Shown here: positions 1-62,908 of the stretch, one piece after another | Layout of the letters: each line of letters begins with the position of its first letter | How positions within the stretch are numbered: position 1 is the stretch's first letter | From: an uncultured Bacillota bacterium | GTDB taxonomy: Bacteria; Bacillota_I; Bacilli_A; RF39; UBA660 | Length of the DNA: 64,000 nucleotides | Reading direction: 5' to 3' | Assembly (NCBI GenBank): GCA_946630315.1 | Contig: CAMOYT010000002.1 | Span: 562 to 64,561, forward strand | Notes under the pieces: model-generated | Seen by the model: only the letters and a program-made list of their open reading frames with translations | The model's database searches: none | Told to the model about the DNA's origin: nothing | Program-made: the position numbers and the translations under genes

Positions 1-1
1 A

Positions 2-463
2 TCAACATCAGATTATCAATATAATATAATATCAGAAAGTGATGTTAAAAATGCAGTAGAAGAAGTATATGGCCCAAACACTTATGAAAAAGCTACTTTT
101 AATTTAGGATGTGGTGATTATACTCTTAACGAAAGTGAAAAAAATTATTATTCTAAAACTGGATGTGGTGGAACCACTGCAACATTTGTAAGCAATATTG
201 TTACTGATTATAAAGCTACTAAGAGTAAATTAGAAATTACTACTGCCTATGCATTTTTTGATGGAATGACAAGCAAGATTTATAAAGATTATAATAAAAC
301 TATTTCTTTAGATGACTATAACGGTGGTAGTACAGAAGAAACAAATGCATATTTAAAAGAGTATGTTAAAACTAATAAAGATAAACTAAATACAATTGTT
401 TATACTTTTGAAAGTACTGATGGAAGTAATTATTACTTTACAGGATTTAAAAATAATAAATAA
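2..463 (+). CDS. hypothetical exported/surface protein, C-terminal part (5' end outside window)
   Basis: The frame is open from the window edge to the TAA at 461-463; the ORF track shows only the last Met-started 65 aa. A hairpin terminator follows. The T-G-C-G-G region loosely resembles ORFs 57758-58606 and 59935-61557. Confidence 0.55.
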   Translation, partial: STSDYQYNIISESDVKNAVEEVYGPNTYEKATFNLGCGDYTLNESEKNYYSKTGCGGTTATFVSNIVTDYKATKSKLEITTAYAFFDGMTSKIYKDYNKTISLDDYNGGSTEETNAYLKEYVKTNKDKLNTIVYTFESTDGSNYYFTGFKNNK

Positions 464-471
464 TAGATTTG

Positions 472-506
472 AAAAAAGTGATATTTTAATCACTTTTTTG
501 TTTTTA
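472..506 (+). terminator. rho-independent terminator
   Basis: Stem aaaagtgat (474-482) pairs with atcactttt (489-497), followed by a T-run. Confidence 0.6.
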
Positions 507-563
507 AAAATGTCATTTTGTACTTGACTATCCTATATTATCGCTTTTCTTCCTAGAATATAG

Positions 564-608
564 AAGTGTGGAAGTGGTAAGAAATACAAACAATGCCACG
601 GAAAGTAG
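564..608 (+). pseudogene. relic 3' end of a SEC-C motif (SecA C-terminus-type zinc-binding) gene
   Basis: Nt 564-605 read K-C-G-S-G-K-K-Y-K-Q-C-H-G-K, then TAG. An in-frame TAG at 561-563 sits immediately upstream, and no further ORF lies upstream. An intact terminator follows. Confidence 0.5.
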
Positions 609-616
609 TATAAAAT

Positions 617-641
617 AAGACTAGAAATAGTCTTTTTTTTC
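617..641 (+). terminator. rho-independent terminator retained behind the SEC-C relic
   Basis: agacta (618-623), loop gaaa, tagtct (628-633), then T8. Confidence 0.6.
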
Positions 642-682
642 TTACTGTAAGTTATGTTATAATCAATATAGGAGTTGATATT

Positions 683-1288
683 ATGGATAAATTATATTTT
701 GAAATACCATCAATTAATAGAAAAGAAGATATAGTCGAATATATTAATGAATTTGCTGAATATAAATCTGATCTCAATGGAATAGGTTCATTAGATAAAA
801 TATTAGAAGGATATACTTTTGAAGAAGCTCTAGAAAGATGTTTAAATATGAAAGATAAAACCTATGCTGAAAAAGTAGGAAGATGTCCAGGAAAGACATT
901 CTTATTAATTAGAGAAAGCGATAATAAACTAATCGGAACATTAAACCTAAGATGGGATTTAAATGAGGCAATGCAAAGATTTGGTGGTCACATAGGTTAT
1001 GGAATTAGACCAACAGAAAGAAGAAAAGGCTATAACAAGATTAATCTATACTTAGGTATGATTGAAGCTCAAAAAGTAGGACTAGAACGTGTAATGTTAG
1101 ACTGTGATGTAAATAATATAGGATCAGATAAAACATTAAAAGCACTAGGTGGAAAATTAGAAAGAACAGAAATAGACCCATCAGATGGAATATTAACAAA
1201 TGTTTATTGGTTTAATGTAAAAGATACTATTAATAACTATAAAGACATATATGAACCAAATATCTATACAACTAATAAGACTAAGTAG
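683..1288 (+). CDS. GNAT family N-acetyltransferase
   Basis: 201 aa. The segment GYGIRPTERRKGYNKINLYLGMIEAQKVG matches the GNAT acetyl-CoA binding core (R-x-x-G-x-G/A type). An SD (ggag) lies upstream. Confidence 0.7.
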   Translation: MDKLYFEIPSINRKEDIVEYINEFAEYKSDLNGIGSLDKILEGYTFEEALERCLNMKDKTYAEKVGRCPGKTFLLIRESDNKLIGTLNLRWDLNEAMQRFGGHIGYGIRPTERRKGYNKINLYLGMIEAQKVGLERVMLDCDVNNIGSDKTLKALGGKLERTEIDPSDGILTNVYWFNVKDTINNYKDIYEPNIYTTNKTK

Positions 1289-1320
1289 TATAATTTACGT
1301 AAATAATACATGGAGGAAAT

Positions 1321-2082
1321 ATGATAGAAATAAATAATGTTTCAAAAGAATTTGAAAAAGAAATTGAACATGGTAAAACAATAAAATTCTATGCTGATGA
1401 TAATATCTCATTTGAAGTAAAAGATGGAGAAATACTAGGACTATTAGGACCAAATGGAGCTGGAAAAACAACTTTACTTAGAATGATTGCAGGAATAATG
1501 AAACCAACTAAAGGAGAAATACTAATAGATAATAAAAGCTATGATACAGATGAAATAGAAGTAAAGAAAAGTATATCTTTCTTATCTGGTAATACTAAAC
1601 TATATAAAGATATATCTTGTGTAGAATTATTAAAAATGTGTGCTGGCTACTATGAAATGGATAAAGAAAGTATAAATAAAAGAATAGAAGAAGTAGTAAA
1701 AAGATTTGATATGAATAGCTTTAAAGATCAAAGAATAGGCAATCTATCAACAGGACAAACACAAAGAGTAGGAGTAGCACGTTGTGTTATGCATAATCCT
1801 CATAACTATATACTAGATGAAGCAACATCAGGATTAGATATAATATCAAGTCAAGTAATATTAGACTTTATAAAAGAAGAAAAAACTAAAGGTAAGTGTA
1901 TAATTTATTCAACACACTACATGGAAGAAGCAGAAAATATCTGTGATAGAGTAGTCTTAATAAATAAAGGTAAAATAATCGCAATAGGAACTCCAAAAGA
2001 AATAGAAAAAGATACTAAGACTACCAATATAAGAGATGCCTTCTTTAAATTAATAGGAGGTGCAAACAATGAAATGGAATAA
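1321..2082 (+). CDS. ABC transporter ATP-binding protein (NatA-like, ABC-2 type)
   Basis: Walker A GPNGAGKTT, signature LSTGQTQRV, Walker B ILDEATSGLD. SD ggagg upstream. Confidence 0.85.
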   Translation: MIEINNVSKEFEKEIEHGKTIKFYADDNISFEVKDGEILGLLGPNGAGKTTLLRMIAGIMKPTKGEILIDNKSYDTDEIEVKKSISFLSGNTKLYKDISCVELLKMCAGYYEMDKESINKRIEEVVKRFDMNSFKDQRIGNLSTGQTQRVGVARCVMHNPHNYILDEATSGLDIISSQVILDFIKEEKTKGKCIIYSTHYMEEAENICDRVVLINKGKIIAIGTPKEIEKDTKTTNIRDAFFKLIGGANNEME

Positions 2083-3214
2083 TATTAAAATAACTATATT
2101 TAAAGAATTAAGAGGAATAATAAGAGATAAAAAGTCTCTTCAAAAATTAATTTTATATCCTCTATTAATACCCCTAATAATAGTATTATTTGGAGTATTA
2201 TTCGATTCAATGAATGATGCTAACTATAAAGTAGGTATTAATTATGATCTAAGTACTGAAGAAAAAGCTATTATAAAAGATTTAGATACATTTGCCACAA
2301 AGAAATATGATAATAAAAAGGAATTAGAAAAAGCTTATAAAGATGGAGATATAACTGCTTATATTATAAAGAATAATAGTATATATACTATATATACAGA
2401 TGTATCTCAAAATAGTGGTGAAATAATAAATCAAGTTGCAACTGCTTACCTAGAATCTTATAACAAAGTATTAGGAACAAAATATTTAATAAGTAAAAAC
2501 GTAGATACAACTAAAGTATATAATACTATTACTATAAAGAATGAATCACTAATAGAAGATGATTTTGATATAATGACAACGCTAGTATTTAACTTAGTAA
2601 TGACATATATTATTATGATAGTAGTAATGGTATGTGTAGTAGTAGTAATAGATGCTACATCAGGAGAAAAAGAAAGAGGAACATTAGAAACTATTCTAAC
2701 ATTCCCAGTAAAAAGTTCAGAATTAGTATTAGGAAAATACATAGCCACATCACTATTAAGTTTTATCATAGGAACAATTTCTTATCTATTATCAATCCCA
2801 ACATTGATAATAGGAAAAGAAGTATTTAAATCATATGAAGATATAGTTTTTATAAGTAATATAAGTACAGTATTATTAGTAATATTTGTAATACTATTAA
2901 GTGCTCTATTATCAGCAGGAGTATGTATGGCTCTAGCTGGTAAAGCTAAAACATATAAAGAAGCTCAATCATCACTACAATTTATAACAATACTACCAAT
3001 GATACCTTACTTCTTAAAGTTTATGGAAATAGATAATTTTATCTTTAATCTAATTCCAATTGCTAACTGTGGTGGAGCATTAAATGATATAGTAACAAAT
3101 AGTATAAAAATAGATACATTATTAACAATAATAATAACTACTATTATCTATACAGTAGTAATATTAATCTATATATCAAAACAGTATAAAAAAGAAGAAA
3201 CATTGTTTTTATAA
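2069..3214 (+). CDS. ABC-2 family transporter permease (NatB-like)
   Basis: Multi-pass hydrophobic protein that overlaps the ATPase gene. I moved the start to ATG 2069, which lies 8 nt after GGAGG at 2056-2060; the track start at 2060 is a GTG inside the SD. Confidence 0.7.
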   Translation: MKWNNIKITIFKELRGIIRDKKSLQKLILYPLLIPLIIVLFGVLFDSMNDANYKVGINYDLSTEEKAIIKDLDTFATKKYDNKKELEKAYKDGDITAYIIKNNSIYTIYTDVSQNSGEIINQVATAYLESYNKVLGTKYLISKNVDTTKVYNTITIKNESLIEDDFDIMTTLVFNLVMTYIIMIVVMVCVVVVIDATSGEKERGTLETILTFPVKSSELVLGKYIATSLLSFIIGTISYLLSIPTLIIGKEVFKSYEDIVFISNISTVLLVIFVILLSALLSAGVCMALAGKAKTYKEAQSSLQFITILPMIPYFLKFMEIDNFIFNLIPIANCGGALNDIVTNSIKIDTLLTIIITTIIYTVVILIYISKQYKKEETLFL

Positions 3215-3215
3215 G

Positions 3216-3238
3216 AGCATCAAATAGATGCTTTTTTA
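3216..3238 (+). terminator. rho-independent terminator
   Basis: agcatc (3216-3221) pairs with gatgct (3227-3232), followed by a T-run. Confidence 0.6.
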
Positions 3239-3305
3239 ATCGATTATTAAAAAAATAAGCTAAAAAATTATCATTTTATAGTATAATTTAACAGGGAGTG
3301 ATTAT

Positions 3306-4535
3306 ATGAAAAAGTTAATAGTAGGCCAATCAGGAGGACCAACAGCAGTAATAAATGGAAGTTTAGCAGGAGTTTATATTGAAGCCAAAAAGCAAGGTTT
3401 TGATAAAGTATATGGAATGCTAAATGGTATAGAAGGACTACTTCAAGATAAAATAGTAGATCTAGATGAATATTTTAATGAAGAACATAATTTAGAATTA
3501 CTTAAAAGAACACCATCTTCTTTCTTAGGTACATGTAGATTTAAACTAGGAAAAGTAGAAGATCATGAAGATTTATATGAAAAGATATTTGAAGTATTAG
3601 ACAAACACAAAATAGACTCATTTATCTATATAGGTGGTAATGATTCAATGGATACAGTAGAGTCATTATCTGATTATGCCAAAGATCATGGTAAGAAGCA
3701 AAACTTTATAGGCGTACCAAAAACAATAGATAATGATTTACCTATAACTGATCATTGTCCTGGATTTGGTAGTGCTTGTAAGTATATTGCAACAACATTA
3801 AAAGAAGTTATAAGTGATAATGCTTGCTATGGAGACACTAAAAAAACAGTAGCAATAGTAGAAATAATGGGAAGACATGCAGGATGGTTAACAGCAGCAG
3901 CTTCATTAGCAAAAGATGAGACATGTCCAGGTGTTGATGCTATCTATTTACCTGAAGTTTCATTTGATATAGATGCTTTTGTAAAAGATGTAGAAGAATT
4001 ACTACAAAAGAAATCAAATATAGTAATTGCAGTATCAGAAGGAATTAGAACAGAAGATAGAAAATTTGTCTGTGAACTATTAGATACAAATTTACAAACA
4101 GATTCATTTGGTCATAAAGAATTGGTTGGATGTGCAGATGCCTTAGGAAGAATTCTAAGAGACAGACTAGGAATAAAAGCAAGACCTATTACTTTATCTA
4201 TTCTACAAAGAGCAGCTTCCCATCTAGCATCTAAAACCGATCTAGAAGAAGCTATTGAGTGTGGAAAATTAGGAGCTAAATTAGCCTATGAAAATAAGAC
4301 AGGAAAAATGGTAGTAATGACAAGAAAACCAGGTAAAGAATATAAAATTAAGTATGAAGTATTTGATGATATTCATAAAATAGCAAATGTTGAAAAGAAA
4401 ATACCACTTGATTGGATTGATGTTGATAATAATTATGTTAAAGATGACTTAGTAAAATATTTAAAGCCATTAATTCTAGGAGAAGTAGAACAAATATATA
4501 AAGATGGTATTCCACAACATTTAATAATGAAATAA
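3306..4535 (+). CDS. 6-phosphofructokinase, PfkA family, with PPi-dependent-type signatures
   Basis: Motifs GQSGGPTAVINGS, IGGNDSMDT and GVPKTIDNDL. Asp occupies the position of E. coli Gly104 and Lys the position of Gly124. Confidence 0.85.
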   Translation: MKKLIVGQSGGPTAVINGSLAGVYIEAKKQGFDKVYGMLNGIEGLLQDKIVDLDEYFNEEHNLELLKRTPSSFLGTCRFKLGKVEDHEDLYEKIFEVLDKHKIDSFIYIGGNDSMDTVESLSDYAKDHGKKQNFIGVPKTIDNDLPITDHCPGFGSACKYIATTLKEVISDNACYGDTKKTVAIVEIMGRHAGWLTAAASLAKDETCPGVDAIYLPEVSFDIDAFVKDVEELLQKKSNIVIAVSEGIRTEDRKFVCELLDTNLQTDSFGHKELVGCADALGRILRDRLGIKARPITLSILQRAASHLASKTDLEEAIECGKLGAKLAYENKTGKMVVMTRKPGKEYKIKYEVFDDIHKIANVEKKIPLDWIDVDNNYVKDDLVKYLKPLILGEVEQIYKDGIPQHLIMK

Positions 4536-4554
4536 AGCCTTTAGGCTTTTTTTA
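4534..4554 (+). terminator. rho-independent terminator
   Basis: aaagcc (4534-4539) pairs with ggcttt (4544-4549), followed by a T-run. Confidence 0.55.
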
Positions 4555-4588
4555 TTTATGTTATAATAAAAATAATAGGAGTGATAAT

Positions 4589-5893
4589 ATGTCTATAATC
4601 GCAAGCTTTGCTGTACCTCATCCACCTTTAATAGTAAAAGAAATAGGTAGAGGTAGTGAAAATCAAATATTAAAAACAATTGCTTCATATAAACAAGTAG
4701 CAAAAGAAATAAAAGAATTAGAACCAGAAACAATAATAATATCATCTCCTCATACAAAATGTTATACTGACTATTTTTATTTATCATCAACAACTAAAGT
4801 AGAAGGTTCATTTGCAACTTTTGGAGCACCACAAGTAGAATTTAAAGAAGAAATAGATAAAGAATTAGTACAAGAAATAGAAAAAATTTCAAAAGAAGAA
4901 ACTTTTCCAGCCGGAACAATAAATGAAGCAGTAGAATTAGATCATGGTACTATGGTTCCACTATACTTTATTAGAAAAGAATATCCTAATTGTAAAATAA
5001 TAGTAATAGGAATATCACAATTACCACTAGATATGCACTATCATTTAGGAAAAATAATAACAAAAGCAGTAGAAAAGTTAAATAGAAAAGTAGTATATGT
5101 TGCAAGTGGAGACTTATCTCATAAATTACAAGAGTATGGACCATATGGCTTTATAGAAGAAGGACCAATTTATGACAAACGAATCATAAAAACATTACAA
5201 GAAGCTAACTTTAAAGAACTATTGGAATATGATGAAGAATTCTTAGATAAAGCAGCAGAATGTGGACATCCTTCATTTACTATTATGGCTGGTACCTGGG
5301 ATAAAAGGAAAGTAAAAGCAAGTTTCTTATCACATGAAGATATAACAGGAGTAGGTTATGGCATATGGACTTTCTATCCACAAGAGGATGAATATGTCCT
5401 TTTAGCAAAACAATCTATTACTTCATATATCAAAGAGCATAAAAAGCTAAAAGTACCAAATAATCTATCAACAGAACTACTTAATAATCAAGCCGGAGTA
5501 TTTGTCTCAATCCACAAAGATGGTTACTTAAGAGGATGTATAGGTACATTCTTACCAATGCAAAATAATATAGCAGAAGAAATAATAGAAAATGCTATCA
5601 GCGCATCTACAAGAGATCCAAGATTTGAACCAATTACAGAAGAAGAACTAAAATATTTAGAAATAAATGTAGATGTCTTAACACCACCTGAAAAAATAAA
5701 TTCTAAAGAAGAATTAGATCCAAAAAGATATGGAGTAATAGTAGAAAAAGACTATAGAAGAGGATTACTATTACCAGACTTAGAAGGAATAGACGAAATT
5801 GATGATCAAATAAATATTGCTAAGCAGAAAGCAGGTATATCAAAAGAAGAAGAAGTAGATCTTTATAGATTTGAAGTAGTAAGACATAAATAA
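4589..5893 (+). CDS. fusion protein: class III extradiol dioxygenase/Memo-like (LigB superfamily) N-domain plus AMMECR1 domain
   Basis: The N-terminal half has FAVPHPPLIV, SSPH, LDHGTMVPL and SGDLSHKL (LigB-like metal-site pattern). The C-terminal half has AGVFVSIHKDGYLRGCIGTF and RDPRF (AMMECR1 hallmark). Confidence 0.75.
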   Translation: MSIIASFAVPHPPLIVKEIGRGSENQILKTIASYKQVAKEIKELEPETIIISSPHTKCYTDYFYLSSTTKVEGSFATFGAPQVEFKEEIDKELVQEIEKISKEETFPAGTINEAVELDHGTMVPLYFIRKEYPNCKIIVIGISQLPLDMHYHLGKIITKAVEKLNRKVVYVASGDLSHKLQEYGPYGFIEEGPIYDKRIIKTLQEANFKELLEYDEEFLDKAAECGHPSFTIMAGTWDKRKVKASFLSHEDITGVGYGIWTFYPQEDEYVLLAKQSITSYIKEHKKLKVPNNLSTELLNNQAGVFVSIHKDGYLRGCIGTFLPMQNNIAEEIIENAISASTRDPRFEPITEEELKYLEINVDVLTPPEKINSKEELDPKRYGVIVEKDYRRGLLLPDLEGIDEIDDQINIAKQKAGISKEEEVDLYRFEVVRHK

Positions 5894-5981
5894 TTACTTA
5901 AATTACAAAAAAGTAATTAATAATTACAAAAATAAGATATAAAACACATAAAAATAAATAATAGTAGCTAACTAAAGTATA

Positions 5982-5990
5982 TGATAAAAT
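5982..5990 (+). promoter_or_regulatory. candidate extended -10 element (TGATAAAAT) for the 6012-9826 operon
   Basis: TGnTAAAAT lies 22 nt upstream of the ATG at 6012. I see no clear -35. Confidence 0.3.
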
Positions 5991-6011
5991 ATAAAAAAAG
6001 TAGGTGACTTT

Positions 6012-8039
6012 ATGAGACTAGAACGATATAAATATCTTCTTGCTTTAATAGACTCTAAAAAAAATAAAATAAGTATCATTAAATTTTTAAAAAAAGATAA
6101 TAAACTATATATGTATGATTTTTATCTACCAAAAGAAAATCAAGAACTATTAGAAGTAAAATCTATAAATGGAATAGAAATATCCTCAATTATAAATAAA
6201 GCAAATGAATCTGATTTTTATGATGATTATCAATTAAGACAATTTAATATAGATACATCTAAATCTTATGAAATAACATTTACTAATGGCAAAACAATAG
6301 ACTTATTAGATGAAAATATAGAAAGTAATATTTTTTATAAGAATCATGATATAAATGAAATTTTAGAGATGTCTGAAGATGTAGAAATAAAAGAAACAGA
6401 AAAGACCAACAATACTATGCTAGATTATGCAAGCACTAATATTAAGTCACTATTAATAATTATCTCTAAAATGCTAAAAAGCGATAAAGACAAAGAACTA
6501 TTTCAAAACTTATTTATAAATTTTAATGAAGTAAATGATAACTATAATAGCGTTAATGAAAATTTAGATATATTGCTATTAAGCACAGAATTACTCCTAT
6601 TAGGAGATAAAATAAATAATATTCCTAATTATTTAGAACTTGCTATAAAAAATAGTATGAGCTTTGATTTTGGAAGCGAAGATATAAGAAAAACAAATAA
6701 TTCTATATTAACTGAAGGAAAAATTGATTATAAAAAATTAATTATTATGATACGTAATTGTATTGCTCATTCAAATTATAAAATATTAGAAGATGGAAGA
6801 ATTAAATTTTATAATGAAGGAAAAAATAAATTAGAAGTAATTGCTACAAAAAATAATATAACAAAAATCTTTAATTATATTTTTAATTATCATTTTCTAG
6901 AAGGTGTATATCCACTAATATATTTAGGCACTTATAATAATGATAATGCACCATTTAATAAAAATACAATTAATGACTTTTTAGATAAAATAGAAGTATA
7001 TGACTTAGGTAATTATCAAATGAAACAAAGCTCTAATAGAGAAAAACAAGATAACTTAGATACTATTTTACCTATAGAATTAGCAGGAATAAAAGAAATA
7101 TCTACTAATAATATTTATAATACTTATATGGACAAAGAAGCTTTTGAAAGAAAGACAAAAGAATTAATAAAAAATCATTTAATAATAGAGGAAGAACCTC
7201 ATTTTAAAAGTTTGACTCAAGAAGATATAAATTTTATTTTCAATAATATTAGTGAGCTAGGAGAAGACTATTTTTACAGCTTATCTCAATCTTCCCAAAT
7301 AGAAGTAATTAATAATCTTATATATCAAAAATATGCTAAAGAATACTATATTCAAAAAAATATCCAAGATATTATAAGTACTAATCATTATAGTAATGAT
7401 AGCTTAAAAAATAAAGCTTCTAAATATATAAACTATAAAACTAAATTAGAACTTTTAATAACAACATTACTAAATAATATATTCTTATTCTGTTATAATC
7501 AAAATAAAAGTAATCAGGATGCATCAAGCATCATATTCCCAATGACAATATATAATGATTATCTAGAATCAAAAGTATCTACTTTTTACAATATAACAAC
7601 AGAAGCACAAGATTATAAAGTAATCTATAATATATTATTAAAAAGTGCCTCAACTCATGCTTTTCAAGAAGAAGATTTTGAATTAATAGATGATAAGATC
7701 AAAGAAACCAGAAATAGACTATATAAATTAAGAAATGATATAAGTATGGCTGATAATATAACTGCAAATAAATATAAACCAGAAGAATTAGAAAAAGTAA
7801 ATCAAGAAATATTAAAAAGAATAAGAGATTGTCTAGCTCATGGAAGATTAAAAGTAGAATTAAATTCTATTAATAGTATTGCAGAGGCAAGAATTGAGAT
7901 AATAGATGAATATAATAGCCAAGTACTATTTGAAACAACTATAACATTAGAAGAACTACTAAATACTATTAATAACCAAGATTTTATTAATTCAATATTA
8001 AATAATAATAAAAACTTTGAAAATCATAAAACTATATAG
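6012..8039 (+). CDS. uncharacterised protein with two HEPN-type R-x4-H motifs (putative single-chain dual-HEPN RNase)
   Basis: 675 aa. First motif MIR(248)NCIAH(253)SN at nt 6753-6770; second motif RIR(605)DCLAH(610)GR at nt 7824-7841. SD gtaggtg upstream. The gene is very A+T-rich and Asn/Ile/Lys-rich. Confidence 0.6.
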   Translation: MRLERYKYLLALIDSKKNKISIIKFLKKDNKLYMYDFYLPKENQELLEVKSINGIEISSIINKANESDFYDDYQLRQFNIDTSKSYEITFTNGKTIDLLDENIESNIFYKNHDINEILEMSEDVEIKETEKTNNTMLDYASTNIKSLLIIISKMLKSDKDKELFQNLFINFNEVNDNYNSVNENLDILLLSTELLLLGDKINNIPNYLELAIKNSMSFDFGSEDIRKTNNSILTEGKIDYKKLIIMIRNCIAHSNYKILEDGRIKFYNEGKNKLEVIATKNNITKIFNYIFNYHFLEGVYPLIYLGTYNNDNAPFNKNTINDFLDKIEVYDLGNYQMKQSSNREKQDNLDTILPIELAGIKEISTNNIYNTYMDKEAFERKTKELIKNHLIIEEEPHFKSLTQEDINFIFNNISELGEDYFYSLSQSSQIEVINNLIYQKYAKEYYIQKNIQDIISTNHYSNDSLKNKASKYINYKTKLELLITTLLNNIFLFCYNQNKSNQDASSIIFPMTIYNDYLESKVSTFYNITTEAQDYKVIYNILLKSASTHAFQEEDFELIDDKIKETRNRLYKLRNDISMADNITANKYKPEELEKVNQEILKRIRDCLAHGRLKVELNSINSIAEARIEIIDEYNSQVLFETTITLEELLNTINNQDFINSILNNNKNFENHKTI

Positions 8040-8048
8040 GAGGTTAAT

Positions 8049-9134
8049 ATGAACATAAAGCCAAAAAAATTAAATAAAGGAGATAAAGTAGCAATAGTAT
8101 CATTATCTAGAGGACTACTTGGAATGCCCTTTTGCAAGCATGAATTAGATTTAGGTATCAAAAGACTAGAAGAATTCGGTTTGGAACCAGTTATTATGCC
8201 TAATTCGTTAAAAGATATGGATTATCTATTTAATCATCCAGAAGAAAGAGCAGCAGACTTAAAACAAGCCTTCTTAGATGACTCAATTAAAGGAATAATC
8301 TGTGCTATAGGAGGCGATGATACTTATAAAACATTTGAGTATTTAATGGAAGATCAAGAATTTATTACTGCTGTAAAAGAACATCCTAAAATTTTTACAG
8401 GCTTCTCAGATACAACAAATAATCATTTAATGTTAAATAGATTAGGTCTATCTACATTCTATGGCCCATGCTTTTTAGTAGATATAGCCGAATTAGATAA
8501 AGAAATGTTACCATATACCAAAGAGTCATTTGAAAGATTTTTTAAAGAAGAAAATTGTTATGAAATAAAATCAAGTCCAATCTGGTATAGTGATAGAGCA
8601 AGTTATGGAGTAGAAGAACTAAATAAACCAAGAATATCTCATAAAGAAGAACATGGTTATGAAACGCTAAATGGAAGTGGAGTAGTATCAGGAAAACTAT
8701 ATGGTGGATGTATAGAAAGTATTTATGATGCCCTAACTGGAGAAAGATATGGTAATGAAAATGAAATATATGAAAAATATCATATTTTACCAACAAAAGA
8801 AGAATGGCAAGAAAAAATATTATTTTTAGAAACTAGTGAAGAAAAAATAAATAGTGATAAATTAAAACAAATTTTATTAGAATTAAAGAAAAGAAGTATT
8901 TTAGATCTAGTAAAAGGAATTATCATAGGTAAACCAATAGATGAAACATATTATGATGAATATAAACAAGTATATAAAGAAATATTTGCGGATATAGATA
9001 CACCAGTATTATTTAATGTTAACTTTGGACACTCAGTACCTAGAGCTTTAATTCCATATGATGCACTTGCTGAAGTTGACTATGATAATAAAAAGATCTT
9101 TATAAAATCTAAAATATTTGAAAGTGAAGAATAA
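8049..9134 (+). CDS. S66 family LD-carboxypeptidase (LdcA/MccF-like)
   Basis: The nucleophile motif GFSDTTNNHLML and the C-terminal NFGHSVPRALIPYDA match the Ser-His-Glu S66 pattern. SD taggagg lies 9 nt after the upstream stop. Confidence 0.8.
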   Translation: MNIKPKKLNKGDKVAIVSLSRGLLGMPFCKHELDLGIKRLEEFGLEPVIMPNSLKDMDYLFNHPEERAADLKQAFLDDSIKGIICAIGGDDTYKTFEYLMEDQEFITAVKEHPKIFTGFSDTTNNHLMLNRLGLSTFYGPCFLVDIAELDKEMLPYTKESFERFFKEENCYEIKSSPIWYSDRASYGVEELNKPRISHKEEHGYETLNGSGVVSGKLYGGCIESIYDALTGERYGNENEIYEKYHILPTKEEWQEKILFLETSEEKINSDKLKQILLELKKRSILDLVKGIIIGKPIDETYYDEYKQVYKEIFADIDTPVLFNVNFGHSVPRALIPYDALAEVDYDNKKIFIKSKIFESEE

Positions 9135-9826
9135 TGATATACATAACTGGAGATACTCATGGTACTTTCTCAAGACTTCTAGCACCAACAATTGAAAAAA
9201 CTAATAATAACTTAGTAATAATTCTAGGAGATGCTGGAATAAACTATTATTTAGATGAGAGAGATAAAACAAAAAAAGATTATCTAAATAATCTAGGTAT
9301 AAAAATATTATCTCTTCAAGGAAATCATGAAGAAAGACCAGAAAACATATCAACCTATAGAGAAATAGATATGTATCAAGGAAAAGTATTTATAGAAGAT
9401 GAGTATCCTAATTTAATATTTGCTAAAAATGGAGAAGTATATAATATTGAAAATAATTCATTTCTAGTAATAGGAGGAGCATATTCAGTAGATAAATACT
9501 ATCGTTTAAGAAATCATTTAAATTGGTTTAAAGATGAACAATTATCAAAAAAAGAACAAAAACATATCTTAAAGACAACTAAAGACTTAAAAGTAGACTA
9601 TGTTCTATCTCATACATGTCCATATAAATACATTCCAAGAGAAGCTTTTCTACCAGGAATAAACCAAGACTTAGTAGACAATAGTATGGAACACTTTCTA
9701 GATAAAATAGAAGAACAAGTAGATTATGATAAATGGTATTGTGGACATTATCATATAGAAAAAGAAATAGATAATTTAGAATTCATGTATCATGATGTAA
9801 AAGTATTAAAAAAAAGTAAACATTAA
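9134..9826 (+). CDS. metallophosphoesterase (calcineurin-like phosphoesterase family)
   Basis: Motifs GDTHG, ILGDAG, GNHE and CGHYH. The start overlaps the upstream stop (TAATG). Confidence 0.75.
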   Translation: MIYITGDTHGTFSRLLAPTIEKTNNNLVIILGDAGINYYLDERDKTKKDYLNNLGIKILSLQGNHEERPENISTYREIDMYQGKVFIEDEYPNLIFAKNGEVYNIENNSFLVIGGAYSVDKYYRLRNHLNWFKDEQLSKKEQKHILKTTKDLKVDYVLSHTCPYKYIPREAFLPGINQDLVDNSMEHFLDKIEEQVDYDKWYCGHYHIEKEIDNLEFMYHDVKVLKKSKH

Positions 9827-9840
9827 GTTTACTTTTTATA
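9810..9840. terminator. bidirectional hairpin between convergent genes
   Basis: aagtaaac (9814-9821) pairs with gtttactt (9827-9834). The hairpin is flanked by an A-run and a T-run. Confidence 0.5.
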
Positions 9841-10369
9841 ATTCAATAATTTTTGGAGTATGATCTAAATCTACTAAGTATTTATCTATTAAATCACTAG
9901 TTTTAAACTTTATATGAGTAGTACTAATACCAGTATTACAAGCAAAAAAATCATTACTAGCAACTTCTTTATCTAATACAACTTGAACAATCTTATTAGT
10001 ATCATTAAAAATACTCATAACAGAAGCATTACCATAACTGACACCTAATATATTAATCATATCATCTTCACTAGCAAAAGATACTCTAGCACATTCCATA
10101 TTCTTAGCAAAAGTCTTAGTATCAAACCTTTTATTTGCTGGCATAACTACTAAGTAATATTGTGTTTTCTGTCTATTACATAAAAACACAGTTTTTCTTA
10201 TCTCTTCTCCAAGTACTTTACTAATCTCTTCACATTCACTCATAGCTTCACTAACATCATTAGTAACACCCTGATACTCAATATTAAGTTTATGTAAATA
10301 ACTAAATACTTTTTCTTCTAATTCATTACTATAATTACTTTTCTTATTAAATATCTCACTAATATACAT
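9836..10369 (-). CDS. YbaK/ProX-type aminoacyl-tRNA editing domain protein
   Basis: 177 aa. The pattern KTVFLCNRQKTQYYLVVMPANKRFDTKTFAK...LGVSYGNASVMS is typical of the tRNA_edit (YbaK/PrdX) family. Confidence 0.65.
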   Translation of the reverse strand: MYISEIFNKKSNYSNELEEKVFSYLHKLNIEYQGVTNDVSEAMSECEEISKVLGEEIRKTVFLCNRQKTQYYLVVMPANKRFDTKTFAKNMECARVSFASEDDMINILGVSYGNASVMSIFNDTNKIVQVVLDKEVASNDFFACNTGISTTHIKFKTSDLIDKYLVDLDHTPKIIEL

Positions 10370-10414
10370 AATATCTACTCCTTTTAAGCAATTATATTAG
10401 TATTTTAATAAAAA

Positions 10415-10446
10415 CACAATAAAAAAGACATATATAATATGTCTTT
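10415..10446 (-). terminator. rho-independent terminator of the protease operon
   Basis: aagacatat (10425-10433) pairs with atatgtctt (10437-10445). The plus-strand A-run at 10418-10426 gives a U-run on the - strand transcript. Confidence 0.55.
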
Positions 10447-11881
10447 ACTTATCATTTGAATAACTAATAGTAGTATCTATCATTTCAGAATTATCTATAT
10501 TATTATTGCTATTATTATCTTTATTAGTATCTTCAACTATTACAGTTTCATTCTTACTACCATTCTTAATTATAATAGCAATTACAACACTAATAATTAA
10601 TAGTAATAATATAACTATAACTATTAAAGGAATAATATTAGTATCGTTACTAGCAACCGCAACATTTTCACCACTAATAGTAGCCTTAGTTAAGAAATAA
10701 TCAGAACAATGATCAATACTTATTTCGACATAACCATTAGTAACTTCTACATCTTGATTCATAAATGTAATTTTGTTTTCATTACCATCTAAGAAATATA
10801 AATGTAAGTTATCACCATCAGTATATTTATCTCCCACATATATTCTTAAAATAGTATTTTTAGGCAAGTCACCACTATGAGAAAAGTTTAAATAAACACC
10901 CTCTCGATAATCAGTTAACTTCTCCAATTGATTCTTATTACTTGCTGTAAAAGATAAATCTAATTTTATATTATCTTGGTTATTAATATTCTTACTATTA
11001 ATCATCCAAGAATATAATGTTTTACTATCTTTTTTCATAATGAAATAAGCATTCTTATTAGTCTTTTTAATCTTTTGTAATTGTTCACTTGTTAATATAT
11101 CATTATCTTTTAATGTAATAACTATATTCTCTTTAGATTCACTAATAGCATCATCTAAATCACTTAAGTAATATGTATCATCTTTTCTAGTAACTGTAAT
11201 CGTATAAGTCTTTTTACTACCATTCTCAGCAGTACATACGACTTGGAATACATTATCTCCTACTTTTAAAGTCTTTTCTCCAGCTCCACTAACAGAAGCT
11301 TTAGAGTCAGCTGCTTCAGCAATTATTTTTATTTTATCAACTGAATTCTTAACAGTAACAGAATAACTATTATTACTTTTAGAAACTAACTTATAACCAG
11401 ATACTTCTATTTTCTTCAAATTATTATTAGCTGATTTATTATTTTTATTATTAGTAACAGGATTAGTTGGTTTAGTAGTATTATTGTTATTATTGTTGTT
11501 ATTGTTATTATTAGTAGGTGCCTTAACAGTAACTGTAATAGTAGTGCCTCCAGTTATTTTTTCTTCATCAAAAGAAGCAACATCACTATATACAACATTA
11601 ATAGTAGCAGTACCAACAGCTCCAGCTTTTACTGTAATTGTTTGTGTATTGTTTTCAACCCATATAGAACCAGCAGATACAGTCGCAACACCGGTATTAG
11701 AAGAAGAAATATTAATTCTTCCTACTGCGTTATTAGCAGTAATTGAAAAAGAGGTACTTCCATTAGGTGCTAAAGATATATTTTTAGTAGATACACTAAT
11801 AGATCCACTAGCTTTAACACTAAATGGTAAAATAATTAAACTAAGTAATATAACAAGTATTAATTTATTTAATCTTTTCAT
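10445..11881 (-). CDS. cell-surface protein: signal peptide, Ig-like (Big_2-like) domain, poly-Asn linker, cadherin-like beta-sandwich domain, unknown domain, C-terminal TM anchor
   Basis: The N-terminus KLILVILLSLIILPFSVKASG looks like a signal peptide. The region NLKKIEVSGYKL...KTYTITVTR matches the cadherin-like beta-sandwich pattern. The C-terminal IIPLIVIVILLLLIISVVIAIII is a TM helix. Confidence 0.6.
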   Translation of the reverse strand: MKRLNKLILVILLSLIILPFSVKASGSISVSTKNISLAPNGSTSFSITANNAVGRINISSSNTGVATVSAGSIWVENNTQTITVKAGAVGTATINVVYSDVASFDEEKITGGTTITVTVKAPTNNNNNNNNNNNTTKPTNPVTNNKNNKSANNNLKKIEVSGYKLVSKSNNSYSVTVKNSVDKIKIIAEAADSKASVSGAGEKTLKVGDNVFQVVCTAENGSKKTYTITVTRKDDTYYLSDLDDAISESKENIVITLKDNDILTSEQLQKIKKTNKNAYFIMKKDSKTLYSWMINSKNINNQDNIKLDLSFTASNKNQLEKLTDYREGVYLNFSHSGDLPKNTILRIYVGDKYTDGDNLHLYFLDGNENKITFMNQDVEVTNGYVEISIDHCSDYFLTKATISGENVAVASNDTNIIPLIVIVILLLLIISVVIAIIIKNGSKNETVIVEDTNKDNNSNNNIDNSEMIDTTISYSNDK

Positions 11882-14800
11882 CTATATACCTCCATTCATT
11901 ATAATATTTTTAATTCTAACATAATCAAGAGCTGATATTATTTCATCTCCGTTAGCATCTGCCGCCAAGAGCTCCAGCATACCAGCAATTATATTAGTTC
12001 CCATAATATGATTTTTAACTTTAACATAATCTAGAGCTGAAATAGAACTATCTCCATTTATATCACCTCTAACAACATTAGTATATGTATAAATTAAATC
12101 ATCATTTTTATAAATCTTTGTAATACAACCAGTATAGATATATTCTTTATCTCCCATATCTACTTCAATTCTATAATTACTTCCTGCCTCGAAATATGAA
12201 AGATATTTTTCCAATGTAGTATTAGGATCAACCTTATCTATAATCATTACTGCATCATCTACTTCATAATGATTAATTTCAAAGTCCCTTTCTTCAACCC
12301 ATTGTGCATATAAGTCTAAAGTATAACTACCACCATTACTTAAATTACCTAATCTCTCATTAACATCATATCTAGAACCAGAACCATCTTCTTTACTATT
12401 CCAATATGCAAATTGGTATCCTTCTTTAGTAAATTGATTTTCACTAACATTTATACCTTCTCCATAATGATATACTTGATCCTCCATAGAACCATTACCA
12501 CCATTACTATGATATTTAATAGTATAAGTATATATTTCCCATATAGCATATAAATCAACATCACTATTTGGATTAATTGTTTGATCAACTGAATATGAAG
12601 TACCAGATCCATCAGCTTTAGTATTCCACTCAACAAACTTATGACCTTTATAAGTAAAAGTATTATTCTTAATACTTACAGAGTCACCTTGTTCATAAGT
12701 CTCTACTAAAGAATCATTATTACTATTATTACTATGATATGTAATATTAATAGGATTTTCAGGTTCAACTGTAACATTAATAGTACTTACATAGCCATCA
12801 TAATAATTCTTTAAATTAAATGTACTATAACCATACTTATTAGCTTTAATCTTAACATTATTACTATAAATAGTATTATTAGGAGAATTAGTAATAGTAA
12901 TATTATCATTATTGACACCATAACCATATAACTTAATATTATTAGAATTACTTAAATTAATATAATCATCTAAGTATACTTCTTCTCCCTTACTAATTGT
13001 AATATCATATACTTCAGTATATTCAATATCAACATTTTTAAGTAAAGGAATCCTACTAATACCATTAACAGTATCCATTTTCCAATAAGTACTAAAATCA
13101 TCCCAATTATATAAGTTTGGATTACCTAAATTATCATTATCATAAATACTATAACCATTAGTAATATTTAAATTATCACTCTTACTATTTCCAATTAAAC
13201 CTCTACCATCAACAGTATTAGAATAATTATTATTAATAAAATATGTATTAGTAATAAACTTATTAAGTACTATTTCAGCATAATCAGTAATAACACCAAT
13301 AAATGCCCCATAACTATTAGTATTAGGAGTAATATTAGAATATTCAATATTACCAATATTTTCTACATTAGTCATATATACATGTGGTATGAAATCTTCA
13401 TCATTTGATTGATAACCGACAACTTTTCCAATTAAACCACTAGCTGTTTTACCCCCAACATTAGTATTATTAAATATAGTATTAATATTATAATCATTAT
13501 CCCAATCAATACTATTAGAGTCATCTATTAAACCTATTAGAGCACCAGCACTACCATTCTTTGAATAAATAGAGCCATCTATAATATAAATATTTTCAAA
13601 AGTACTAGAACTTAATTCGTAACCTTTATATGCTCCAACTAATCCACCAGCATCACTATTAGTATTAATATCAACATTTCTTATATATAAATCATTAATA
13701 TTAACATTTCCAGTAACAACACCAAATAAACCAGCAGCATCATAATCATTACTAATATTTATATTTTTAATATAATGTCCATCTCCATCAAGACTACCAC
13801 TAAATGGATAATCATTAGTACCAATAGGTACCCAATCACCAGATAATACAATATCATTAGTTAATTTATAAAAAGCATCTAAATTATAAGAAATCTGTTT
13901 TAATTCATTCTCGTTAGAAATAAGATAAGGATCATTATAAGTACCACTACCATTTAAAGTAAATACATCACCAACAAGTACTCTAGAAGTAAAAGAATTA
14001 GAACCATAAATAGTATTTAAATAATAAACTCCATCACCAATAGTACTTTTAATTTTTAAATGAGCATTAACATCATTTTTAGAAACAATACCTAAGTCAT
14101 ATGATAAATAACTAGATTTATCAACACCATTACTAGTAGTTAATTTATAAGTAACATTACTACCAGAATTAATATTCTTAGTATTAGAATAAGCATAAAA
14201 ATCATAATAACCACTAACTGGACTACTTAAATTAAAATCAGGTGTCGAAATAACAGCACTATTATCAACATTAGAAGTAAATACACTGATTTGAGAACCT
14301 AAGAAACTAGAATTAGAAGGACTATTAAGATTAACAGAAAAGCTATCTTTATCAATAATAATATTATAAGAACTTAAATCTATTGTATTATACCCAGGCA
14401 TAGAAGCTGTATAAGTAGCAATATCATTATAAGTATCATATCCACTCTTAATAGTAACATTATAAGTAGAATTAGAACTTAAAGCATAAAACTTAATCTT
14501 TTCAATTTTCTCAGATCCTTTAACATTCTTAGTATAATCAATAGTTTCATTAGAAGTATAATACAAAGCAGAAGTATCTATCTTTTTATGATAATAATTA
14601 TCCCAAGTACGATTATTCGTACTAGTAACATCAGTAGCAATATTAATATCAGACTCTAAAGAGTCATATGCTAAATAAGCATATTTATAAGTACTTGAAT
14701 CTCCCCAAGAATTTCTAATTAACCAAGCCCCAGTACCAGTTACTTTATTACTACTAGAACATGAAGAAGTAGATGCATTATGACTAGTACCAGTTTTGCA

Positions 14801-15769: not shown

Positions 15770-15791
15770 AAACGACTCTCCTATTATATTT

Positions 15792-15820
15792 ATTATATTA
15801 TGAATTCAAATAATAAACAA
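15792..15820 (-). promoter_or_regulatory. sigma-A-type promoter for the protease operon
   Basis: On the - strand: TTGTTT (15820-15815), 17-nt spacer, TATAAT (15797-15792). It lies about 20 nt upstream of the SD aggagag. Confidence 0.5.
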
Positions 15821-15848
15821 TAAAAAAACAATAACAAAGTTATTGTTT
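15821..15848 (-). terminator. rho-independent terminator of the AraC-lipoprotein unit
   Basis: aacaataac (15827-15835) pairs with gttattgtt (15839-15847). A plus-strand A7 run precedes it, giving a U-run on the - strand. Confidence 0.55.
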
Positions 15849-16516
15849 TAGCAATCTTCAACACTTTGGCAAATCTTTGTTGAATAAAGACTATTACCAC
15901 GATATTCTCCATCTAAAAAGTCATCTTCACTATCATATGTAAATACACTAAGAATAATATTAGAATCTATATTATCACATTGATAACTACTTTGTAATTT
16001 AATAGCCGTAAATAGAGTAGAATCATTATATTGATTTTCTTCAATATGTGAATAAAAACTCTTACCTTTATTAGCATAATCATCATACAAATAATTCATA
16101 AGATATTCCCATTTATCAAAAGTTTGACTAGGATTTAATATGTTATATGAAATATCTTCTCCATTCTTTAATTTAAACTTAATATTAAAACCTACTTTTA
16201 CATTATATTTATTATATAAATCATAATAACTATCAGCAAATCCCTTATTTAGATCTATTTCCTTATCATTACTAAAATAAACTTGGTATATTCCAATATC
16301 TTCTTCTACCTTAAATTTCTTAATATCTTTCTCTACTTTAACTAATTTATTACCAGATAATCTATATAATCCAATAGGAGTATTATTAAGATCCTTATAA
16401 CTATCTTCAACAACTTCTTCTTTTATATCTTCCTTTTCTTTAATAACTACTTCCTTCTTACCACAACCAATACATAATAAACAAATAATAATTACTAATA
16501 AATATTTTTTCATCAT
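15848..16516 (-). CDS. putative lipoprotein
   Basis: The N-terminus MMKKYLLVIIICLLCIGCGKK has a signal peptide and a lipobox-like Cys. Confidence 0.55.
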   Translation of the reverse strand: MMKKYLLVIIICLLCIGCGKKEVVIKEKEDIKEEVVEDSYKDLNNTPIGLYRLSGNKLVKVEKDIKKFKVEEDIGIYQVYFSNDKEIDLNKGFADSYYDLYNKYNVKVGFNIKFKLKNGEDISYNILNPSQTFDKWEYLMNYLYDDYANKGKSFYSHIEENQYNDSTLFTAIKLQSSYQCDNIDSNIILSVFTYDSEDDFLDGEYRGNSLYSTKICQSVEDC

Positions 16517-16524
16517 TTCATCAC

Positions 16525-59934: not shown

Positions 59935-61557
59935 ATGGAGAAAGAAAAAGAAAAGAAAGAGCCAAAAAAAGAAACAAAGAAAAAAGTAACTAAGAGTGAA
60001 ACTAAAAAAGTAGTAGAACACAAATTTTGTGGAGAATGTGGAAATAAATTGGGTAAAAATGATAAATTTTGTGAAAATTGTGGAGCACCAACTCATATAG
60101 AGATTAAAGAAGAAAAAAAATCCCCAAAAGCAGTGGAAAAAGAAGAAAAGAAAGAAGAAGTAGAAACTAAAAAAGAAAAAGAAGTCACAAAAGTTGTTGA
60201 AAAAGAAGAAAAAGTAGTTGAACCAATACCAAAAAAGAAAAGTAATAAAGGTTTAATTATTACAATTATAGTATTAGGATCTCTACTAGGAATAGGAGTA
60301 ATAGTATTATTACTATGTTTAATATTAGGTGTATTTAGTCCAAAACCAAAAACTAATTGGGGAGAACTATATGCAGCTAAAATACAAGAAGCAGTAGATT
60401 ATCACAAAAAATATCCAAAAGCTGAAATGTATGGAGTTGTTCAAGGAATAAACAAATATAATATTAAAATTGTAGATATTGGAGAAAAATATCCAGTAAT
60501 GATTTCTGAAGCTAAGAAAGATGATAAAACTAGTAGAATGATTTATTATATTGATAATGACAAAGTTGGTTATGTATCTTCAGAAGCAAATGATGATATT
60601 AAATTATTTTATAATACTGAAGTTAAAGACTATATTTGGTATAGAGAAACAAAAAGTGGAATCACATCATATTATGATCCAATAGGAAAAATAGTAGATC
60701 AAGAAAAGTCCTCATCAATTAGCAATAATAAATGCTATAACTGTACTACACAAGCTAATAACGAAAATATAAAAGCAGATAAATATACAAGCTATACTTT
60801 CTATGAAAAAGAAAATTTAAGTGATACAGATATAGAAAAATATATTTCTTATAAAGACCAAGTATTAATCGAAGTAGAAAAGAAAGTTCCAACTAAGACT
60901 ATTGATATAGATAAACCAAAAGTAAATGAAGTAATTGCAAACTTAGAAGAATCATATAAAGAAAAAGAAAATTTAATTACTAATAAAGATGAAAAGAATG
61001 TTGAAAAGGTAACAAAAGAAATAGATGAAAAAGTAGAAGAATATAATAAAAAACAAGAAGAATTAGCACTAAATTCTAGTAACTTCCAATCAAAAGTAGG
61101 AGAACATTTAAAATGGTTTAGTGCAGCATATTCTGGTTCATATTATGGATTTAATCATGTATATAAATATATAGATGTAACTGGAAAAGTAAAAGTACCA
61201 GGTACTCCAAGTGATTATATGGTCTATGAAGTATCAGGAGCTAAATCAAAAGAAGATATGAAAAATACTGTTTTAAAATATGTAGAACAATCAGTTTTTG
61301 ATAATTTAAATAGAAGACATTACAAAACAATGTTTAATGACTTATATGATTATAATGGAAAAGTATATCTAGTAGAAGGTGGAATAGGAGATGGACCTTA
61401 TATTAAGCCAGAAGAAGCTAGATTTGTATCATATGCAAATGGTGAAGCGAAAGTCCAATTATTCCAAAAAGATCCATTTGAAGGTAGCACAACTGCAACT
61501 ATTACAGTTACAATTAGATATATAAATGGAGAATATAAGATAACAAGTTATAATTAA
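59935..61557 (+). CDS. hypothetical membrane protein: N-terminal zinc ribbon, Lys/Glu-rich spacer, one TM helix, large extracytoplasmic domain
   Basis: CGECGNKLGKNDKFCENCG and the TM helix GLIITIIVLGSLLGIGVIVLLLCLILGV. SD taggagg upstream. Confidence 0.55.
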   Translation: MEKEKEKKEPKKETKKKVTKSETKKVVEHKFCGECGNKLGKNDKFCENCGAPTHIEIKEEKKSPKAVEKEEKKEEVETKKEKEVTKVVEKEEKVVEPIPKKKSNKGLIITIIVLGSLLGIGVIVLLLCLILGVFSPKPKTNWGELYAAKIQEAVDYHKKYPKAEMYGVVQGINKYNIKIVDIGEKYPVMISEAKKDDKTSRMIYYIDNDKVGYVSSEANDDIKLFYNTEVKDYIWYRETKSGITSYYDPIGKIVDQEKSSSISNNKCYNCTTQANNENIKADKYTSYTFYEKENLSDTDIEKYISYKDQVLIEVEKKVPTKTIDIDKPKVNEVIANLEESYKEKENLITNKDEKNVEKVTKEIDEKVEEYNKKQEELALNSSNFQSKVGEHLKWFSAAYSGSYYGFNHVYKYIDVTGKVKVPGTPSDYMVYEVSGAKSKEDMKNTVLKYVEQSVFDNLNRRHYKTMFNDLYDYNGKVYLVEGGIGDGPYIKPEEARFVSYANGEAKVQLFQKDPFEGSTTATITVTIRYINGEYKITSYN

Positions 61558-61802: not shown

Positions 61803-62114
61803 ATGTCAACAGAAAAGATTCGTATCAGAATTAAAGCATATGATCATAGAATCTTAGATAATGCAGCAAAGAAAATTGTTGAAACTGTTAAAAGATCTGG
61901 TGGACAAATCTCTGGTCCAGTACCACTTCCAACAGAAGTTGAAAAATTCACAATTCTAAGAGCTGTACACAAATACAAAGATTCTCGTGAACAATTCGAG
62001 ATGCGTACACACAAAAGACTAATTGATATCAAAAATCCAAGTAAGGAAACAATCGATGCGTTAGCGCACCTTGATTTACCAAGTGGAGTAGATATCGAAA
62101 TTAAAACTAAATAA
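61803..62114 (+). CDS. rpsJ: 30S ribosomal protein S10
   Basis: [14 protein letters not shown] and [31 protein letters not shown]. Confidence 0.97.
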
Positions 62115-62128
62115 TGGAGGAAAAAATA

Positions 62129-62908
62129 ATGAAAGGAATCTTAGGTAAGAAAATCGGAATGACTCAAGTATTTACTAAGAATGGTAAATTAATTCCGGTT
62201 ACTGTTATTGAAGTAGAGCCAAATGTAGTAACTCAAATCAAAACAGTTGAAAAAGATGGTTATGATGCTATCCAACTAGGAACTGACACAGTAAGAGAAA
62301 AATTAAGCAACAAACCAAAAATGGGTCATACAAACAAAGCTAACACAACACCTAAGCGCTTCTTAAGAGAAATTAGAGGAGTTAACGTTAATGATTACAC
62401 TTTAGGTCAAACTATTGGTGTAGACATTTTCGAAGCAGGGGAAATCGTTGATGTTACAGGAACAAGTAAAGGAAAAGGTTTCCAAGGCGTTATCAAACGT
62501 CATAACCAATCTCGTGGTCCAATGGGACATGGTTCTCAATATCACAGAGGTGTTGGTTCTCTAGGTACTATGTTACCAATGCACGTATTAAAAGGTAAAA
62601 AGATGCCTGGACAAATGGGTAATGTTCAAAGAACTGTACAAAACTTAGAGATTGTACAAGTTGATGTAGAAAATAGTGTAATTTTAGTAAAAGGTAATGT
62701 TCCAGGTCCAAAGAAATCATTAGTAATGATTCGTACTGCTGTTAAGAGACCAGATGCTAAGAATGAAGCAGCTGACTTAATCAGTTATGTAACTGAAGAA
62801 CCAGTAGTAGAAGAACAACCAACTGAAGCTGTAGAAGAAGTTGTAGCTGAAGAAACTGCTGAAGAAGTAGTTGAAGAAGCTAAAGCTGAAGAAACAACTG
62901 AAGAATAA
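62129..62908 (+). CDS. rplC: 50S ribosomal protein L3 with about 50-aa acidic C-terminal extension
   Basis: [15 protein letters not shown] and [11 protein letters not shown]. The start at ATG 62129 lies 8 nt after GGAGG. The tail from residue 209 is Glu/Val/Ala-rich. Confidence 0.95.

Follow-up and report, generated by a model that had tools for sequence, protein, structure and literature searches.

The window analysed here is a 64,000-nucleotide (nt) stretch of contig CAMOYT010000002.1 from an uncultured Bacillota bacterium, and the element under study is a gene on its plus strand (6012..8039), a complete open reading frame (ORF) with an ATG start that encodes 675 amino acids (aa) plus stop, a putative single-chain double-HEPN protein. 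A likely ribosome-binding site read from the sequence, AGGTGA (6002..6007, plus strand), is located 4 nt before the ATG. The gene is flanked by an A+T-rich spacer of 118 nt upstream and by a spacer of 9 nt downstream; given the former, it may have its own promoter, and a promoter scan of the upstream region gave a score no better than that of shuffled sequence. The protein contains exactly two matches to the HEPN signature R-x4-H, R248-N-C-I-A-H253 (6753..6770, plus strand) and R605-D-C-L-A-H610 (7824..7841, plus strand). With just 15 Arg and 9 His in its composition 0.2 such matches would be expected; at least two were present in 291 of 20,000 shuffled sequences (1.5%), and at least one match to R[ND]xxAH in 27 of 20,000 (0.14%).

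In an alignment of the window protein with 19 homologs (20 sequences, 31-52% identity) R248, N249, A252, H253, S254, N255 and Y256 in and after the first motif, and R605, A609 and H610 in the second, are invariant. In both motifs the R is directly followed by a polar residue (N249, D606), as the criterion for the HEPN superfamily asks. An initial annotation, made from the sequence of the window, had described this ORF and both motifs at the same positions, and had named poor conservation of the motif residues among homologs as one of the findings that would speak against its reading; coordinates and length were reproduced exactly and both motifs proved invariant. It had also listed a degenerate third copy, KLRNDISM (aa 571-578). 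This segment does exist, within the central part of a long helix, but the R is replaced by K in most homologs and the H is absent, so it was discarded as an unconserved chance resemblance.

A first homolog search retrieved 22 proteins with 31-52% identity, mostly of 666-689 aa, from assemblies of uncultured gut "Bacilli bacterium", and the only name given to family members by public sources is "hypothetical protein". A profile search of 1.84 billion representative proteins returned 99 proteins at E<=1e-3, 32 of them at E<=1e-30, and a pattern-limited scan of 185,579 species genomes detected only four family loci; to date the family is known from uncultured gut Bacilli only. Beyond it there are distant full-length relatives of 460-920 aa, nearly all with a pair of R[NH]xxAH-type motifs; 245-405 aa separate the two, and the C-terminus usually follows the second at a distance of about 60-90 aa. 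The N-terminal modules differ across this superfamily: a sister family (505-620 aa) is devoid of the domain at aa 1-127 of the window protein, and some relatives of more than 800 aa carry this domain together with about 95-135 extra N-terminal residues. Between about aa 100 and aa 671, the window protein was matched by the profile of the sister family (E 1.7e-20). In addition, short single-unit relatives (about 80-270 aa) were recovered by profile search, and these match the second unit only.

The assignment to HEPN was achieved through these relatives. In comparisons with hhalign, the first unit of the window protein was aligned with the single-unit family A2 over aa 242-298 (probability 95.4%, E 1.7e-8), and the second (aa 505-675) over 107 columns (probability 98.8%, E 4.5e-17). 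The model PF18736 (HEPN pEK499_p136) was matched by 8 of 15 single-unit relatives (best E 9.7e-6) and by 3 of 20 proteins of the sister family (best E 6.5e-8), HEPN_MAE_28990 being matched by 2 of the 15. Specifically, the sister protein P0085 scored 32.5 bits against PF18736 (gathering cut-off 26.6) at residues 483-567, around its second motif. A precomputed annotation based on a newer model version lists PF18736 for 11 of the 22 homologs; with the version used here the window protein itself fell below detection. On these comparisons, and on the modelled structure described below, it is accepted that both motifs belong to HEPN units of the pEK499_p136 kind, membership being transitive via the relatives. 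In the NCBIfam scan a sub-threshold match of the window protein to NF050146, "aminopyruvatide family RiPP ApyA" (E 2.9e-4, 21 bits vs a cut-off of 47), fell on the second HEPN motif (window 7797-7898, aa 596-629), where NF050152 also matched weakly; the ApyA match probably corresponds to a short common sequence pattern.

The alignment yielded a confident AlphaFold2 model (pLDDT 87.4; pTM 0.88, which indicates a compact fold), in which four parts can be distinguished, all encoded on the plus strand. The N-terminal beta-rich domain (aa 1-127, 6012..6392), with modelled strands at aa 2-52 and 87-97, is family-specific; L32, Y33, E42, I52, N53 and F108 are invariant in the alignment, and no family in Pfam, NCBIfam, PADLOC or PHROGs matched it. 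It is proposed that this domain may serve as a regulatory or sensor module. HEPN unit 1 (aa 128-300, 6393..6911) is the best-conserved segment, with 23 invariant columns, and comprises helices ahead of the motif helix (240-252), then a sheet of three strands (256-278) and the helix 280-294. A central alpha/beta domain (aa 301-465, 6912..7406) is modelled between the HEPN units; F421, Y422 and Q429 are conserved in it, and it showed no similarity to either HEPN unit and no family match. HEPN unit 2 (aa 466-675, 7407..8036) contains a long helical hairpin at 511-584 and the motif helix at 590-609; a sheet of three strands (614-645) and terminal helices (646-662) come after the latter. The arrangement was no different when aa 505-675 were modelled separately.

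In both modelled units a helix has the R-x4-H motif at its C-terminal end, and the inserted sheet and then another helix come next. In HEPN domains, core helix-3 carries the motif at its C-terminal end, where the loop to helix-4 begins (Anantharaman et al., 2013, PMC3710099), and the agreement with this rule supports the HEPN reading. When the two units were compared with each other they could be aligned over 16 columns only, around the motif, so a recent tandem duplication was rejected; as far as such an alignment tells, they are old, diverged units. Altogether, this evidence indicates that the 675-aa protein is very probably a double-HEPN protein of the ribonuclease (RNase) type. It resembles PF18736 proteins in the motif R-N-x-x-A-H-G/S-N at a helix end (Anantharaman et al., 2013, PMC3710099) and differs from them in having two units in one chain, whereas the Pfam model covers one unit of about 150 positions, as well as in the addition of the N-terminal beta domain and the central domain. 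Neither the HEPN class nor its motif is new, and the concept of HEPN dyads in a single chain was known as well; what is new is a family with two pEK499_p136-type units per chain, a new N-terminal domain and the central domain.

The gene has a G+C content of 21.1%, the second lowest among the 54 ORFs of the window (mean 27.1 +/- 3.3%), which agrees with the initial annotation, where it was described as more A+T-rich than its neighbors. The low value resides in codon positions 1 and 2 and is due to an amino-acid composition with 46% N/K/I/Y/F; the G+C content at third codon positions (GC3), 10.7%, is ordinary for the window (12.8 +/- 2.9%). The closest homolog, P0002 (52% identity), is encoded in the same slot of a related genome (L010), in the order PFK, AMMECR1/LigB, (PRPP synthase), HEPN gene, LD-carboxypeptidase, cadherin-like, large surface protein; therefore, the HEPN gene was present in the common ancestor of both genomes. 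In that genome the gene is preceded by a gap of 16 nt and its stop overlaps the next gene. Between the window and the related genome PFK is 81% identical, AMMECR1/LigB 75%, LD-carboxypeptidase 78%, the cadherin-like protein 69% and the large surface protein 54%, that is, 69-81% for four of the five neighboring genes compared vs 52% for the HEPN gene, which, judged by these identities, is diverging faster than the surrounding housekeeping genes.

Five strain variants all encode 675 aa at full length with 2-10 mostly conservative substitutions, and within the species the HEPN gene and its neighbors co-occur on the same contigs. Recent import, and with it the horizontal acquisition suggested by the initial annotation, is rejected on account of the shared slot in the relative, the typical GC3 and the intact variants; the gene can be regarded as chromosomal, vertically inherited and fast-evolving. 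A second relative at a similar distance (L018; PFK 87.5% and LD-carboxypeptidase 70% identical to those of the window) has PFK, ABC, ABC2 and LD-carboxypeptidase in this order at 9001-13445, a locus that lacks both AMMECR1/LigB and the HEPN gene, evidencing that the region has been rearranged between close relatives.

In the other loci the flanks of family and sister-family genes vary by lineage: SecA...prfB in L001 and L005, FtsH...PBP1 in L002 and L012, FTHFS...radical SAM in L011, DAGK in L013, and AckA or GmrSD...PfkB in L014 and L017. They have no partner gene in common, which points to a stand-alone gene. Several of these loci are of the defence-island type. Directly downstream of a 45%-identical homolog, L001 encodes Fic, a HipA-like kinase, HsdR (E 1.7e-135 to EcoR124 HsdR), HsdM (E 9.5e-138) and a likely HsdS; this segment (12847-20755) is a defence island with a type I restriction-modification system, and it is missing from the otherwise syntenic SecA...prfB locus of L005. 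In L017 a Dam-like methyltransferase and GmrSD (4863-7925) are located directly upstream of a 578-aa sister protein, in the slot occupied in L014 (2503-7944), from a genome related to that of L017, by glycosyltransferases and acetate kinase. L009 encodes an 845-aa relative with a tRNA just upstream, on a contig that also contains GmrSD and a Bro-N gene. In L006 an element with relaxase, sortase, helix-turn-helix and tyrosine-integrase genes (1-5891) is found where L005, L007 and L008 have SecA and upstream genes; its position beside a block formed by genes for a 252-aa, an 80-aa and the HEPN protein suggests an integration hotspot. Finally, L013 encodes two family members 5.6 kb apart, a 680-aa homolog (7001-9043) and a longer, 831-aa paralog (14634-16043) that runs off the locus.

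Based on these observations a model may be proposed in which the protein, cytoplasmic and composed of the N-terminal beta domain, HEPN unit 1, the central alpha/beta domain and HEPN unit 2, would act alone. Following the example of HEPN dimers and Cas13, the two HEPN units would pack against each other within one chain and form one composite, metal-independent RNase site with R248/N249/H253 and R605/D606/H610, cutting RNA to leave 2',3'-cyclic phosphate ends. Since no conserved partner, antitoxin or CRISPR array accompanies the gene, its activity is expected to be restrained inside the protein itself: the N-terminal and central domains would most plausibly hold the RNase closed until its release by a cue such as phage infection, after which the cell would be halted by cleavage of tRNA, rRNA or mRNA, in the manner of abortive infection. 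We lean, with moderate confidence, towards this interpretation of the gene as a stand-alone, self-gated defence RNase. It is consistent with several signs of a conflict gene, namely fast divergence, defence genes nearby in some loci, the paralog in L013 and variable N-terminal modules, and with the reported linkage of pEK499_p136 HEPNs to restriction-modification, Pgl and other defence operons (Anantharaman et al., 2013, PMC3710099). Of the uncharacterised RNA-targeting or abortive-infection effector put forward in the initial annotation, the uncharacterised double-HEPN protein with invariant motifs stands, and the defence role is what we infer.

Several observations weigh against a self-gated defence RNase. 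In the window the neighbors of the HEPN gene are housekeeping genes, with no adjacent mobile element or defence gene, and they are housekeeping in most other family loci too, so the setting between unrelated housekeeping genes that was first described for the window holds more widely. A scan of viral contigs found no homolog. The window protein itself matched nothing in Pfam, PADLOC or PHROGs, in keeping with the early remark that it belongs to no nameable family, and the HEPN assignment is transitive because it is the relatives that match PF18736. Among the short "single-unit" proteins there may be pieces of longer genes from short contigs. With Foldseek, the whole model retrieved generic helical hairpins from the PDB and BFVD at E >= 0.25 (best about 0.3), with no HEPN or Cas13 structure among them, and the isolated unit 2 retrieved generic helical hairpins from the PDB at E >= 0.26, again without a HEPN or Cas13 structure; PDB sequence searches with three profiles returned coiled-coil noise only. 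Foldseek and hidden Markov models (HMMs) have been reported to miss distant HEPN relationships, such as the link between Cas13an and Cas13 (Yoon et al., PMC12165695).

The protein could, alternatively, be a lineage-specific housekeeping nuclease for RNA processing or turnover that cuts a defined cellular RNA (a rRNA or tRNA precursor, or a mRNA). Las1 and Swt1 have RNA-processing or turnover roles in eukaryotes. This explanation is favored by the chromosomal position of the gene among housekeeping genes in most loci, the syntenic slot kept in the relative, its intact state in all strain variants and co-occurrence with its neighbors on contigs, its native GC3 and the absence of an antitoxin or immunity partner. 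However, an identity of 52% compares poorly with the 75-81% of the neighboring housekeeping genes, the family is small (32 representative clusters at E<=1e-30 among the 1.84 billion proteins, just four loci in the pattern-limited scan of species genomes), and L018, a relative of similar distance, is without the gene at the corresponding locus. The variable N-terminal modules, the existence of a paralog and the defence genes near some loci likewise argue for a conflict gene, and a housekeeping nuclease is considered rather unlikely.

Many HEPN RNases are held in check by a partner, as HepT by MntA, RnlA by RnlB and AbiF by its RNA (Yoon et al., PMC12165695), and the 675-aa protein might be the toxin of a toxin-antitoxin-like module with an unrecognised antitoxin, either a small protein or an RNA. 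Two small unannotated ORFs (252 and 80 aa) that precede the homolog in L005-L008 are compatible with such a module. Against it, no neighbor is common to different lineages, and no MNT or RnlB-like gene, as an antitoxin of the HepT/MntA or RnlAB type would demand, was found among the neighbors across lineages. In addition, the spacers are short (118 nt upstream and 9 nt downstream in the window; 16 nt, with the stop overlapping the next gene, in L010), and Rfam scans of the window and 8 loci yielded nothing at the gathering threshold, neither the abiF RNA motif (RF03085) nor any other family. A toxin with a hidden antitoxin is therefore regarded as improbable.

The initial annotation had offered a head-to-tail fusion of two AbiD/AbiF (Abi_2) proteins of about 350 aa as one of its two readings. 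The catalytic motif context is indeed similar, hydrophobic-R-N/D-x-hydrophobic-A-H being common to Abi_2 proteins, for which a role in abortive infection is presumed; the HEPN domains of Cas13an are reported to group with AbiD/F (Yoon et al., PMC12165695), and one of the 15 single-unit relatives gave a marginal match to Abi_2 (E 0.055). In contrast, Abi_2 (PF07751) was matched by neither the window protein nor its 19 homologs. The homologous units are of about 110-170 aa and match PF18736 instead, in a size and secondary-structure layout unlike those of AbiD/AbiF. They align with each other over 16 columns, with a distinct central domain filling the 357-aa spacing between the motifs, the likeness of which to the length of AbiD/F is a coincidence, and the abiF RNA was not found by the Rfam scan in the window and 8 loci. 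A tandem Abi_2 fusion is very unlikely in view of these differences.

The other reading of the initial annotation was that of a Cas13-like architecture, since two HEPN motifs per chain are the defining feature of Cas13. In the form weighed here, the protein would be an RNA-guided RNase with its guide encoded elsewhere, either an orphan effector of type VI or an ancestor that predates CRISPR. Cas13, Cas13an and the 675-aa protein have in common two R-x4-H motifs per polypeptide, the second near the C-terminus, and an arrangement HEPN-linker-HEPN, and 675 aa is near the compact end of Cas13 sizes; moreover, the compact Cas13an (429-577 aa) occurs without other cas genes (Yoon et al., PMC12165695). 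Conversely, the motif spacing is 357 aa vs about 236 in Cas13an2, and hhalign comparisons with Cas13an sequences (supplement of PMC12165695) were restricted to the motif (probability 1.7-26%, 12-25 columns). PADLOC and NCBIfam scans of the window protein gave no match to a Cas13 model, such models being expected in both libraries.

A search for CRISPR arrays with TRF, direct repeats and a k-mer chain scan found none in the 64-kb window, confirming with dedicated tools what had been noticed at first reading, and none in 17 loci with a family or sister-family gene; the Rfam scan of the window and 8 loci detected no CRISPR-DR. Given the tiny spacers in the window and in the syntenic relative, a guide locus would not fit around the gene. 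The absence of arrays is strong evidence against Cas13, and the negative fold search is weak evidence, because Foldseek and HMMs are reported to have missed the link between Cas13an and Cas13 (Yoon et al., PMC12165695), so that the negative searches are not decisive by themselves.

Two HEPN motifs in one chain are not exclusive to Cas13. Swt1 has a HEPN dyad (Anantharaman et al., 2013, PMC3710099), and Yoon et al. described twelve previously uncharacterised clusters of the AlphaFold database with an intramolecular HEPN dimer, two of them beside CRISPR arrays (PMC12165695); Swt1 and the other non-CRISPR proteins of this kind, with tandem HEPN in a single chain, are a precedent for the architecture reported here. 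Two bacterial proteins of Table S2 of that work, A0A1Y6ANL6 of Bacillus mobilis and G7MBT4 of Clostridium, showed no similarity to the family beyond the motif in the portion available, the first 400 or so residues, and the other entries, in the part of the table at hand, are eukaryotic, except the Cas13an representative A0A7C5SD50. A lead to the "tandem" protein of type IX retrons was dropped, as the tandem consists of KH domains and not of HEPN. With no array, no model match, similarity to Cas13an in the motif only and no Foldseek match, identity with Cas13 is rejected and an RNA-guided relative is extremely unlikely.

A wider proposal can be made tentatively, namely that the 675-aa protein and its relatives of 460-920 aa constitute an undescribed family of intramolecularly paired HEPN RNases that act as lone innate immune sensor-effectors of uncultured gut Bacilli with a new N-terminal sensor domain; its extreme version, RNA-binding relatives of the Cas13 ancestor working without a CRISPR array, is scarcely credible. 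If the two units form one active site per chain, the family would parallel the nuclease core of Cas13 in a compact form made of protein alone, built from the pEK499_p136 HEPN lineage instead of the AbiD/F lineage proposed for Cas13, and single-chain HEPN dyads would have arisen more than once. In that case it would also provide a small self-regulated RNase with a trigger open to study. The family would add a defence-type gene to the poorly known small-genome gut Bacilli.

Other features of the window were recorded as well. No tRNA gene is present in 1-64000, and no Rfam family reached the gathering score, hence no riboswitch, T-box or leader was detected. Two large adjacent genes on the minus strand (10445-15769) encode the 478-aa cadherin-like protein and a 1295-aa protein, whose counterpart in the relative matches Peptidase_C1 (weakly), Flg_new and Dockerin_1; both are probably surface or cellulosome-like proteins, and the gene for the 1295-aa protein has diverged as fast as the HEPN gene (54% identity). 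Imperfect GAA-rich repeats (Glu codon), not CRISPR-like, occur at 62789-62902 (units of 12-39 nt) within the ORF 62114..62908 and at 60098-60223 (unit of 63 nt) within the ORF 59935..61557. The window as a whole has a G+C content of 27%; translated with genetic code 11, its ORFs are intact.

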